Below are positions 20,738 through 38,314 of a stretch of 64,000 nucleotides of DNA, in pieces (positions within the stretch are counted from its first letter, which is position 1; each line of letters begins with the position of its first letter). The notes beneath the pieces were generated by a model. The model saw nothing but the letters and a program-made list of their open reading frames with translations, did not search any database and was not told the DNA's origin. This stretch comes from Escherichia coli (lineage in GTDB: Bacteria; Pseudomonadota; Gammaproteobacteria; Enterobacterales; Enterobacteriaceae), in assembly GCF_013122565.1 (NCBI RefSeq), contig NZ_CP053258.1, one strand, 5' to 3'. The position numbers and the translations under genes are program-made.

Positions 20738-20746
20738 AGTAGAATT

Positions 20747-20960
20747 GCCTGATGCGCTACGCTCATCAGGCCTACAAAATCTATTGCAACATGTTGAATC
20801 TTCGTGCGTTTGTAGGCCGGATAAGGCGTTCACGCCGCATCCGGCATTAGGGGCTCAATGCCTGATGCGCTACGCTCATCAGGCCTACAAAATCTATTGC
20901 AACATGTTGAATCTTCATGCGTTTGTAGGCGGATAAGGCGTTTTCGCCACATCAGGTAAG
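20747..20960. repeat. BIME/REP cluster (two tandem ~100-bp units of palindromic elements)
   Basis: Near-exact direct repeat of gcctgatgcgctacgctcatcaggcctacaaaatctattgcaacatgttgaatcttc...gtaggc(c)ggataaggcgtt; REP-type palindromes. Confidence 0.8.
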
Positions 20961-20977
20961 AGTGAATTCACAATGAT

Positions 20978-22617: not shown

Positions 22618-23658
22618 TCATTTATCGGAAGACGCCTGCCACAGATTCAGCTCGCCATCGGCGATATGCTGATCAATCTGCGCCAGCTCCTCGGTGCTAA
22701 ATGTCAGATTATTCAGCGCCTGCACGTTCTCCTCTAGTTGCTCCGCGCGGCTGGCACCAATCAATACCGACGTCACGCGATCATCTTTCAGCAACCAGCT
22801 TAACGCCATTTGCGCCATTGATTGTCCACGATGCTGTGCCATGTCATTCAATAATCGCAGGCTGTTGAGGTTGGCTTCGGTGAGCATTTTCGGCGTCAGG
22901 CCACGAACTTTATTCCCTTCACGATGCATCCGTGAATCTTGCGGAATGCCGTTGAGATATTTTCCGGTCAGCAATCCCTGAGCCAGAGGAGTAAAGGCAA
23001 TGCAGCCCACGCCGTTATTTTGCAGGGTATCCAGCAGGCCGCTTTTATCCACCCAGCGGTTCAGCAAATTGTACGAAGGTTGATGAATTAACAACGGAAT
23101 TTTCCACTCGCGCAGTAACTCGACCATTTTTTGCGTCCGCTCTGGCGAGTAAGAGGAGATCCCGACATAAAGCGCCTTACCGCTTTGTACCGCATGAGCC
23201 AGCGCAGAGGCGGTTTCTTCCATCGGCGTATTTTCATCAACGCGATGAGAGTAAAAGATATCGACATACTCAAGCCCCATACGCTTCAGGCTTTGGTCGA
23301 GGCTGGCGAGCAGGTATTTACGTGAACCGCCAGAGCCGTAAGGGCCGGGCCACATATCGTAGCCAGCCTTGGTAGAGATAATCAGTTCATCGCGATAAGC
23401 GGCAAAATCCTCCCGCAGCAGGCGACCAAAGTTCTCTTCTGCGCTTCCTGGAGGCGGCCCGTAATTGTTGGCTAAATCAAAGTGCGTAATGCCTAAATCA
23501 AACGCTTTACGCAGGATCGCACGCTGTGATTCCAGCGCGTTAACGTGACCGAAATTGTGCCATAAACCGAGCGATAACGCGGGCAGGCGTAAACCGCTTT
23601 TTCCGCAATAACGGTACTGCATCTGCCCGTAACGCTCGGGATTCGCTAACCAGACCAT
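22618..23658 (-). CDS. yghZ: Aldo-keto reductase (L-glyceraldehyde-3-phosphate reductase type)
   Basis: 346 aa; MVWLANPERYGQMQYRYCGKSGLRLPALSLGLWHNFG. Confidence 0.92.
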   Translation of the reverse strand: MVWLANPERYGQMQYRYCGKSGLRLPALSLGLWHNFGHVNALESQRAILRKAFDLGITHFDLANNYGPPPGSAEENFGRLLREDFAAYRDELIISTKAGYDMWPGPYGSGGSRKYLLASLDQSLKRMGLEYVDIFYSHRVDENTPMEETASALAHAVQSGKALYVGISSYSPERTQKMVELLREWKIPLLIHQPSYNLLNRWVDKSGLLDTLQNNGVGCIAFTPLAQGLLTGKYLNGIPQDSRMHREGNKVRGLTPKMLTEANLNSLRLLNDMAQHRGQSMAQMALSWLLKDDRVTSVLIGASRAEQLEENVQALNNLTFSTEELAQIDQHIADGELNLWQASSDK

Positions 23659-23811
23659 GACCTCTCCTTTCCACCATTCAATTTCGAAACAATGTTTCTA
23701 GTTTAGCGATTCATCAGTGCGTATCCCGTAGTCTGGCTCACAGAGTGACGAAAAACTGGGCAAAAACACGTGCTTATGCTTTGCTTAAAAAAACACCAAG
23801 TGAGGAGTGCA

Positions 23812-24702
23812 ATGATGCCGCGTTTAACCGCCAAAGATTTCCCACAAGAGTTGCTGGATTACTACGACTATTACGCTCACGGGAAAATCTCGAAACGTGA
23901 GTTCCTCAACCTTGCGGCGAAGTATGCGGTAGGCGGGATGACGGCATTAGCGTTGTTTGATTTGCTCAAGCCAAATTATGCGCTGGCGACTCAGGTAGAG
24001 TTTACCGACCCGGAAATTGTTGCTGAGTACATCACGTATCCTTCGCCAAATGGTCACGGCGAGGTGCGGGGTTATCTGGTGAAGCCCGCAAAGATGAGCG
24101 GCAAAACGCCAGCCGTAGTGGTGGTGCATGAGAATCGTGGACTGAATCCGTATATCGAAGATGTGGCACGGCGAGTGGCGAAGGCGGGGTATATCGCCCT
24201 GGCACCTGACGGCTTAAGTTCCGTTGGAGGTTATCCGGGAAATGATGATAAAGGTCGTGAGCTGCAACAGCAGGTTGATCCAACCAAACTGATGAATGAT
24301 TTCTTTGCCGCAATTGAGTTTATGCAACGCTATCCGCAAGCGACAGGCAAAGTGGGTATTACTGGATTTTGCTATGGCGGTGGCGTATCGAACGCGGCGG
24401 CTGTCGCGTATCCGGAACTGGCCTGCGCGGTGCCGTTTTATGGTCGACAGGCACCCACCGCCGATGTGGCGAAGATTGAAGCGCCTTTACTGCTCCACTA
24501 CGCGGAACTGGACACCCGAATCAACGAGGGCTGGCCCGCTTACGAGGCGGCGTTGAAAGCCAATAATAAGGTTTATGAGGCGTATATCTATCCGGGGGTT
24601 AATCACGGATTCCATAATGATTCCACGCCCCGTTATGACAAATCTGCCGCCGATCTTGCCTGGCAAAGAACGCAGAAATGGTTCGATAAATATCTCTCCT
24701 GA
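23812..24702 (+). CDS. yghX: Dienelactone hydrolase family protein (intact YghX)
   Basis: GAGGAG RBS before ATG at 23812; ~296 aa uninterrupted; alpha/beta hydrolase motifs; the ORF track extends to 23770 via GTG. Confidence 0.8.
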   Translation: MMPRLTAKDFPQELLDYYDYYAHGKISKREFLNLAAKYAVGGMTALALFDLLKPNYALATQVEFTDPEIVAEYITYPSPNGHGEVRGYLVKPAKMSGKTPAVVVVHENRGLNPYIEDVARRVAKAGYIALAPDGLSSVGGYPGNDDKGRELQQQVDPTKLMNDFFAAIEFMQRYPQATGKVGITGFCYGGGVSNAAAVAYPELACAVPFYGRQAPTADVAKIEAPLLLHYAELDTRINEGWPAYEAALKANNKVYEAYIYPGVNHGFHNDSTPRYDKSAADLAWQRTQKWFDKYLS

Positions 24703-24820
24703 TAGGTTTATCTCTTACGGGATTACGTCTTAAACAAGCATGAAAAAATAGCGTGCGCAAAAGTCGTTCTTTGCCTAAAATATCGCTATATATAACAATA
24801 TATAGCGAATGAGGTGAACG

Positions 24821-25108
24821 ATGAATAACCATTTTGGTAAAGGCTTAATGGCGGGATTAAAAGCAACGCATGCCGACAGTGCGGTTAATGTGACTAAATA
24901 CTGTGCCGATTATAAACGCGGTTTTGTATTAGGCTACTCACACCGGATGTACGAAAAGACCGGAGATCGCCAGCTTAGCGCCTGGGAAGCGGGTATTCTG
25001 ACGCGCCGCTATGGACTGGATAAAGAGATGGTAATGGATTTCTTTCGTGAGAATAATTCCTGTTCTACGTTGCGCTTTTTTATGGCCGGTTATCGCCTCG
25101 AAAATTGA
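24821..25108 (+). CDS. yghW: DUF2623 protein YghW
   Basis: 95 aa; [35 protein letters not shown]. Confidence 0.85.
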
Positions 25109-25296
25109 TCAAACATACGTATTATCTTGCTTTAATTAATTACACTAATGCTTCTTCCCTTCGTTTTAGCGCCCCGCCGCAGTATCATGATATCGATAAC
25201 CATAATAAATGTGTGGTAAATGGCGCATCGATCGCATTATTGATTTTGCGATTGAGGCAAAATATATGCCAGGTCTTCGCAACGGAATAACAATAA

Positions 25297-26415
25297 ATGA
25301 CTGGAGATAACACCCTCATCCATTCTCACGGCATTAACCGTCGTGATTTCATGAAGCTTTGTGCAGCATTAGCCGCCACCATGGGGTTAAGTAGCAAAGC
25401 CGCTGCAGAGATGGCCGAATCGGTTACTAACCCGCAGCGTCCGCCAGTTATCTGGATTGGCGCGCAGGAGTGCACCGGTTGTACGGAATCTCTGCTTCGT
25501 GCAACGCATCCAACGGTAGAAAACCTCGTGCTGGAGACTATCTCTCTGGAATATCACGAAGTGCTTTCCGCCGCCTTCGGTCATCAGGTCGAAGAGAACA
25601 AACATAACGCTCTTGAGAAGTACAAAGGGCAGTATGTGTTAGTGGTGGATGGTTCCATCCCATTAAAAGATAATGGGATTTATTGCATGGTCGCCGGTGA
25701 GCCGATTGTGGATCACATCCGCAAAGCGGCGGAAGGCGCAGCAGCGATTATCGCTATCGGTTCCTGCTCTGCGTGGGGCGGTGTTGCCGCAGCTGGAGTT
25801 AACCCGACTGGCGCAGTCAGCCTGCAAGAAGTTCTGCCAGGCAAAACCGTTATCAACATTCCGGGCTGCCCGCCGAACCCGCACAACTTCCTCGCGACCG
25901 TTGCGCACATCATCACTTACGGCAAGCCGCCGAAACTGGATGACAAAAACCGTCCGACCTTCGCCTATGGCCGTCTGATTCACGAACACTGCGAACGTCG
26001 CCCGCACTTCGATGCTGGTCGTTTTGCCAAAGAGTTCGGTGATGAAGGCCACCGCGAAGGCTGGTGCCTGTACCACCTCGGCTGTAAAGGGCCAGAAACT
26101 TACGGCAACTGCTCAACGCTGCAATTCTGCGATGTTGGCGGTGTGTGGCCGGTGGCGATTGGTCACCCGTGCTATGGCTGTAACGAAGAAGGTATCGGCT
26201 TCCATAAAGGCATCCATCAGCTTGCCAACGTCGAAAATCAGACTCCGCGTTCACAGAAACCGGACGTTAATGCTAAAGAAGGCGGCAACGTCTCGGCAGG
26301 CGCTATTGGTTTGCTCGGCGGTGTGGTTGGGCTGGTTGCCGGTGTCAGCGTGATGGCGGTGCGTGAACTGGGTCGTCAGCAAAAGAAAGATAACGCTGAC
26401 TCACGGGGAGAATAA
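25297..26415 (+). CDS. hybO: Hydrogenase 2 small subunit (Tat signal)
   Basis: 372 aa; RRDFMK twin-arginine motif; [NiFe] hydrogenase small-subunit Cys clusters. Confidence 0.95.
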
Positions 26416-37600: not shown

Positions 37601-38314
37601 GTGAATCAACGTAATATGTCAATAATTAATTCCACGCCAGTGCGTGTTATTGCCATTGTAGGATGTGATGGTTCAGGTAAATCGACCCTCACGGCAAGCC
37701 TGGTAAATGAACTGGCAGCAAGAATGCCAACAGAACGCATTTATCTCGGGCAATCGTCCGGGCGAATTGGCGAATGGATTTCACAGCTCCCTGTTATTGG
37801 CGCACCTTTTGGGCGTTATCTGCGAAGTAAAGCGGCACATGTGCACGAAAAGCCCTCAACACCGCCTGGCAATATTACTGCGCTGGTTATCTATCTGCTT
37901 TCCTGCTGGCGGGCGTACAAGTTTCGCAAAATGTTGTGTAGAAGCCAGCAAGGCCATCTGCTCATCACCGACCGCTACCCGCAGGTTGAAGTGCCGGGTT
38001 TTCGCTTTGATGGCCCGCAATTGGCAAAAACCACGGGCGGTAACGGTTGGATAAAAATGTTAAGGCAGCGCGAGCTGAAGCTGTACCAATGGATGGCGTC
38101 TTATTTGCCCGTATTGTTGATTCGTCTTGGCATTGATGAACAAACCGCGTTTGCGCGTAAACCTGACCACCAACTGGCAGCGTTACAGGAAAAAATCGCC
38201 GTTACGCCGCAACTGACGTTCAACGGTGCCAGGATCCTTGAACTGGATGGTCGGCAACCAGCCGATGAAATTCTGCAAGCGTCACTACGCGCAATTCACG
38301 CCGCGCTTTCCTGA
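37601..38314 (+). CDS. yghS: P-loop NTPase YghS (paralogue of YghT/YghR)
   Basis: 237 aa; Walker A GCDGSGKST; shared ITDRYPQ motif. Confidence 0.85.
   Translation: MNQRNMSIINSTPVRVIAIVGCDGSGKSTLTASLVNELAARMPTERIYLGQSSGRIGEWISQLPVIGAPFGRYLRSKAAHVHEKPSTPPGNITALVIYLLSCWRAYKFRKMLCRSQQGHLLITDRYPQVEVPGFRFDGPQLAKTTGGNGWIKMLRQRELKLYQWMASYLPVLLIRLGIDEQTAFARKPDHQLAALQEKIAVTPQLTFNGARILELDGRQPADEILQASLRAIHAALS

Follow-up and report, generated by a model that had tools for sequence, protein, structure and literature searches.

The yghX locus of Escherichia coli raises a simple question: in a strain where the gene is not broken as it is in K-12 MG1655, does it encode a working enzyme, and of what kind? 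We address it here for a window of 64,000 nucleotides of E. coli DNA (NCBI RefSeq assembly GCF_013122565.1, contig NZ_CP053258.1), to whose positions all coordinates refer. The original prediction, made from the letters alone, was of an intact yghX of the dienelactone hydrolase family at 23770-24702, with a GAGGAG ribosome-binding site.

The + strand open reading frame at 23770-24702 is unbroken and comprises 310 residues when counted from its first GTG in a six-frame ORF list. The sequence continues with GAGGAG and then two ATG codons in succession, at 23812 and 23815. The second of these is evidently the gene start, 23770 being a mechanical limit of the ORF only, since orthologues from Escherichia, Citrobacter, Pseudescherichia, Enterobacter, Kosakonia and Leclercia (294-298 aa) begin with MPRL or MTRL, in both D8 and O55:H7 DEC5B PGAP gives yghX a length of 888 nt with the stop counted, and the first, in-frame ATG (23812-23814), which the window shares with D8, reads ACG in K-12 and O55:H7. 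The product accordingly has 295 residues, so that the continuous frame of the original prediction stands while its length of 296-310 aa does not. The proposed ribosome-binding site is found as described and, together with the second ATG, is invariant across the window, K-12, D8 and O55:H7 in an intergenic alignment. The first ATG is probably not used; it lies 4 nt from the Shine-Dalgarno sequence. The features of the gene are as follows.

23802..23807, + strand: Shine-Dalgarno sequence GAGGAG, 7 nt before the conserved ATG, read directly from the sequence
23815..24702, + strand: intact yghX coding sequence of 295 codons and a terminal TGA; matches to NF041440, Pfam DLH and YqhI-like

The family assignment is borne out at every level. 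Against the NCBIfam model NF041440, ‘YghX family hydrolase’, the protein scores 585 bits (cut-off 460, E=2e-176) over profile positions 1-292 of 292. Residues 84-294 match the whole of the Pfam DLH profile (PF01738, positions 1-217 of 217) with 162.9 bits against a cut-off of 21 (E=1e-47), and residues 1-36 match a second Pfam entry, PF23678 or ‘YqhI-like’ (E=2e-20). These match strengths are evidently far beyond those of a chance ORF. A structure is also available under the name ‘uncharacterized protein’: PDB 4ZV9_A (238 aa) was matched with E=5e-160 over residues 60-295 of a 296-aa query, so that the alignment begins at residue 59 in the 295-aa numbering, and it shows five differences from the window protein over 236 aligned positions. 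The E. coli YghX family hydrolases of D8 (WP_001360974.1) and O55:H7 (WP_001302757.1) share gene, locus and 295-aa length with that of the window, which differs from the O55:H7 protein by allelic substitutions only (V69F, S135N, Y229F and Q287L) and is 98% identical to the cluster representative. The exact protein is on record as WP_171460693.1 (QJU27965.1), a rare allele. Across genera of the Enterobacteriaceae, identity within the family is 85-92%. For a broader view of the family, 1.84 billion cluster representatives were searched and the 24 full-length relatives retrieved, at 35-68% identity, were aligned with the window protein to give a set of 25 sequences. More remotely, the putative dienelactone hydrolase of Klebsiella pneumoniae in PDB 3F67 shares the DLH fold (E=5e-23) and the nucleophile motif GFC[YW]GG. 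It is a distant paralogue, not an orthologue, and is itself uncharacterised; its solved chain of 241 residues aligns to the hydrolase domain only (query 83-294) and is therefore uninformative about the N-terminal leader discussed below.

The gene also lies where it should. The order exbD-yghA-yqhA-gpr-yghX-yghW-hybOABC is common to the window, K-12, D8 and O55:H7 and is the canonical E. coli arrangement, the position of yghX between gpr and yghW/hyb being conserved in Escherichia. The immediate surroundings, from the ORFs, syntenic annotation and intergenic alignment, are listed here; no pathway for YghX is suggested by its neighbours gpr, yghW and hyb.

22618..23658, - strand: gpr (yghZ), divergent upstream neighbour
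156 bp: gpr-yghX intergenic region, containing the yghX control region
24821..25108, + strand: yghW (DUF2623), downstream neighbour, followed by hybO at 25297

The comparison with K-12 is more instructive. That the MG1655 copy is a frameshifted pseudogene, as was stated at the outset, is correct: NC_000913.3 lists yghX (b4658) as a pseudogene, and a PGAP-annotated MG1655 record reads ‘YghX family hydrolase, frameshifted’. The supposition of one frameshift has, however, to be amended to two, as the suggested pairwise alignment of the regions readily showed.

23923..23925, + strand: site of the K-12 -2 deletion, codon 37 (TAT), all bases present in the window (alignments); placement as TA at 23923-23924 is equivalent to AT at 23924-25
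24284..24285, + strand: where K-12 has lost one base (-1), a C from the CC pair in codon 157; the window keeps both (alignments)

The -2 deletion shifts the K-12 frame to a stop 11 codons further on. With a net change of -3 the two deletions return the tail to frame, with several stops in between. The locus (b4658 together with yqhI, b4755) is thus orthologous to the window's yghX, with the same ribosome-binding site and start codon, but lacks the TA of codon 37 and one C of codon 157 and yields only a 47-aa stump, YqhI. All three bases are present in the window, which does not carry the K-12-type pseudogene allele. Strain EC931 has the -2 deletion without the -1 deletion, which suggests that the -2 deletion came first and that the -1 deletion may have arisen later in an already dead gene.

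Could the window nevertheless derive from K-12, reversion or recombination having repaired its yghX? This idea has one foothold: apart from the indels, the 5' half of the gene differs from K-12 at a single synonymous site. Yet an alignment of 8,004 columns with NC_000913.3 contains 105 mismatches (98.65% identity), which already refutes it; the two gap openings in that alignment, totalling three bases, are both yghX lesions, and there are no other indels. When 24 kb of the window (14000-38000) were compared with 5,426 complete RefSeq E. coli genomes, the best identity was 98.6% and the top matches were O55:H7 and O157:H7 rather than K-12. Moreover, a contig assembled from an unrelated sequencing run, SRR11451224, is 100% identical to the window over 6.8 kb. 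We regard a repaired K-12 as having practically no chance of being correct, and the original view that the window is not K-12 MG1655 holds. Over the 24 kb there are no indels with respect to O55:H7 DEC5B, and the exact Gpr protein of the window has been deposited as E. coli (WP_171460361.1, QJU26992.1). A Shigella origin, considered in view of so low a best identity, was set aside because the exact YghX and Gpr proteins are both on record as proteins of E. coli. With a best complete-genome identity of only 98.6% over 24 kb, the window comes from a sparsely sampled lineage of E. coli, distinct from K-12.

The K-12 lesions bear directly on a small protein. In NC_000913.3 the start of the yghX pseudogene also carries the annotation yqhI (b4755, 144 nt), and the published YqhI sequence is MPRLTAKDFPQELLDYYDYYAHGKISKREFLNLAAKCGRRDDGISVV (PMC6001520). 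These 47 residues consist of yghX codons 1-36 followed by 11 out-of-frame codons after the -2 deletion (window 23815-23925), reading MPRL...AAK and then CGRRDDGISVV. By this correspondence YqhI is the translated N-terminal leader stump of broken yghX. The Pfam name deserves a similar reinterpretation: since PF23678 matches 24 of the 25 full-length family sequences, ‘YqhI-like’ evidently represents the YghX leader and not a family of small proteins.

In K-12, tagged YqhI is detectable as protein (PMC6001520); the passages there that list the sORF place it between yghX_2 and gpr without linking it to the truncation of yghX. A later study counts YqhI as one of the small proteins that low Mg2+ induces, with ribosome footprints under that condition, and finds that the phenotype of a yqhI deletion is not complemented by plasmid-borne YqhI (PMC11429745); yghX, pseudogenes and frameshifts are not mentioned in that paper. 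A protein studied as an independent, stress-induced small protein is therefore a truncated YghX leader, which bears on how its lack of phenotype is to be read. Translation of YqhI in K-12 also provides indirect evidence that the promoter, ribosome-binding site and start codon of yghX are active.

How common, then, is the intact gene? Of 5,426 complete E. coli genomes, 5,425 contain the yghX region. Exact matches to a 60-mer across the K-12 -2 deletion were obtained in at least 1,248 genomes, in searches that matched 4,995 genomes only, and to a 60-mer across the -1 deletion in at least 1,197 of 5,383; both megablast counts are lower bounds, as a nearby SNP moves a genome into another identity band. 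Among 39 full-length matches drawn at regular intervals from the ranked list, 27 are of intact length, nine of K-12 length, and three are two bases shorter than the query. Genomes of this last, -2-only kind (3/39) are somewhat more frequent in the even sample than the 60-mer counts imply. K-12-type lesions are thus present in about a quarter of the complete E. coli genomes sequenced. Intact yghX is both the majority and the ancestral state, with the broken allele marking K-12 and a sizeable set of its relatives. The suggestion that the intact gene might serve as a minor strain marker is consequently fair, with the accent on minor: the intact state being the common one in E. coli, it excludes K-12 and its relatives and identifies nothing.

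An open frame might have been kept by chance, yghX being silent or functionally decayed in the window strain too. The gene is clearly dispensable, given the frameshifts in roughly a quarter of genomes, and the exact allele is rare, on a reading of five contigs. A consensus scan of 23500-25400 for sigma-70 promoters revealed nothing promoter-like on the + strand between gpr and yghX, a result that is uninformative, as the promoter and terminator scan totals were not above those for shuffled sequence. The substitution pattern runs the other way. Values of dN/dS are 0.064 against O55:H7 (18 synonymous and four non-synonymous differences) and 0.086 against D8, and such ratios between intact alleles, of 0.06-0.09, point to purifying selection. 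Furthermore, the catalytic residues are present (see below), the ribosome-binding site and start are invariant, with K-12 translating YqhI from the same start, and the family retains its high identity across enterobacterial genera. Decay in this strain is accordingly very unlikely, and we have high confidence in the contrary reading, that the window's yghX is a functional full-length allele. Its product would most likely be a thiol hydrolase of the DLH family, exported by the Tat pathway and cleaved from its leader. The precursor of 295 residues would consist of a 58-residue leader and an alpha/beta-hydrolase domain of approximately 237 residues.

In the hydrolase domain, the candidate catalytic residues are readily located by alignment with ClcD, the carboxymethylenebutenolidase of the PDB 1DIN/1ZI8 series. 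The Pseudomonas sequence employed, which we take to be the ClcD reference, agrees with 1din_A in length and aligned range.

24370..24372, + strand: Cys186 (TGC), putative nucleophile, in G-F-C-Y-G-G; Cys in 23 of 25 sequences; aligns with the Cys of ClcD GYCLGG
24511..24513, + strand: Asp233 (GAC), putative triad acid; 25 of 25; aligns with the Asp of ClcD GGQDHF
24604..24606, + strand: His264 (CAC), putative triad base; His in 24 of 25; aligns with the His of ClcD AGHSF

The ClcD alignment hence places C186, D233 and H264 at the canonical positions of the DLH Cys (or Ser)-His-Asp triad, and G184, G188, G189 and D233 are invariant among the 25 family sequences. The two proteins share Pfam family and fold class, with 29% identity over about 238 residues. 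By this likeness the product is likely to be a Cys186-Asp233-His264 hydrolase, whose thiol nucleophile would attack the ester or lactone bond of a small substrate and pass through an acyl-enzyme intermediate, much as in ClcD. The resemblance does not extend to context. ClcD is a cytoplasmic, leaderless protein encoded in a chlorocatechol pathway operon; YghX, unlike it, has a 58-residue leader of Tat type and no aromatic-degradation neighbours. The literature that mentions yghX offers little further guidance. It consists mostly of metabolic-engineering uses of the K-12 locus along with one transcriptome table, the function not being tested, and we found in it no experimental work on what YghX does, on its substrate or on where it is located. 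A passage in one review cites an old prediction, based on a GXCXG motif, of YghX as a possible cPHB polymerase.

The leader itself is organised as follows.

23815..23988, + strand: N-terminal leader, codons 1-58, with an n-region (DFPQELLDYYDYYAH, PF23678), a Tat-like motif, a weakly hydrophobic h-region and a putative A-L-A cleavage site
23890..23907, + strand: S-K-R-E-F-L, at the position of the twin-arginine consensus (S/T-R-R-x-F-L-K) in the family alignment

In the family as a whole the pattern is LYDxYxH-x4-RRxF[LM], a Gly/Ala-rich stretch of about 20 residues, and then PNYA-x-A. The window motif, S-K-R-E-F-L-N, has K-R in place of R-R, while RRxF[LM] is seen in 21 of the 25 representatives. 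Position 27 is Arg in 21 sequences and Lys in three, Lys being the residue in E. coli and its close relatives, and positions 28 and 30 are Arg and Phe, respectively, in 23 each. The h-region and A-x-A site of the window protein read YAVGGMTALALFDLLKPNYALA, followed by TQ, a moderately hydrophobic stretch running into A-x-A; Ala is found at position 58 in 20 of the 25 sequences and at position 56 in 17, and the 4ZV9 chain begins to align immediately behind this site. Judged by its conserved pattern, this architecture resembles that of a Tat signal peptide, the n-region being long and an A-x-A motif offering a site for cleavage. Neither the window protein nor its 24 relatives match PF10518 or a general Tat-signal HMM of the TIGR01409 type; the Rieske Tat-signal model PF10399 gives weak matches in three of the relatives. 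A literature search at the level of titles and abstracts returned no apparently relevant paper on dienelactone hydrolases and the twin-arginine pathway. Because a conserved 58-residue leader of Tat type precedes the hydrolase, YghX is probably periplasmic: the folded protein would be exported by the Tat pathway and its leader removed after Ala58.

Some of the same features can be read differently, with the 58 residues as an uncleaved membrane anchor, or as a cytoplasmic regulatory or partner-binding module, so that the hydrolase would be tethered to the inner membrane or remain in the cytoplasm. The LYDxYxH n-region shows far more conservation than signal peptides usually do and has a Pfam family to itself, the E. 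coli sequence departs from R-R, the h-region holds a Lys and an Asp, and the sole Tat-related match is to PF10399, a leader that in the Rieske family serves as an uncleaved signal anchor. Set against this, most family members combine RRxF[LM], the Gly/Ala-rich stretch and A-x-A, and the mature domain folds and has been crystallised alone (4ZV9). We consider an anchor or module unlikely, though deserving of attention, and continue to favour a cleaved Tat signal peptide.

A separate matter is the n-region ahead of RRxF[LM]. For a peptide that does no more than target a protein, LYDxYxH is conserved to an unusual degree, and for this reason the n-region may do something beyond targeting. One specific version, in which it is a functional module at which a dedicated proofreading chaperone docks, or which acts as a regulatory peptide, strikes us as rather improbable. 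Were it nonetheless true, the YqhI stump of K-12 might keep a leader-derived activity and would not be inert pseudogene debris.

As a discovery, the window's yghX is an ordinary intact copy and matters little: gene, family, structure and the pseudogene status in K-12 are all already on record. The window strain retains a gene that K-12 has lost, and this has a practical side. In K-12 and in about a quarter of sequenced E. coli the gene is dead, the 2-bp deletion at codon 37 leaving the 47-aa YqhI, and yghX is routinely used as a neutral ‘pseudogene’ integration site in the engineering of K-12 and W3110. Neutrality cannot be assumed in the same way for those E. coli strains, roughly three quarters, in which yghX is intact and under selection.

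Three further features of the region may be recorded. The spacer between yghX and yghW contains an AT-rich, near-perfect palindrome at 24783-24808, with 11-bp arms (TCGCTATATAT TGTT ATATATAGCGA), 13 nt before the yghW start codon; the terminator scan marked it on the - strand only, and its role may be that of an operator or of a structural element. Further upstream, the exbD-yghA intergenic region (20739-20971) holds two REP-type units with 72-nt cores at 20746-20817 and 20859-20930, which are 99% identical at a spacing of 113 nt, with a GC-rich palindromic piece of 27 nt after each. This 233-bp block is present in K-12 and O55:H7 and absent from strain D8 and from a contig of SRR11451197. Lastly, the yghS annotation of O55:H7 DEC5B (23602-24001 of the locus compared, corresponding to window ~37601-38000) is that of a pseudogene interrupted by a stop, and at its place the window has a 237-aa ORF at 37601-38314.
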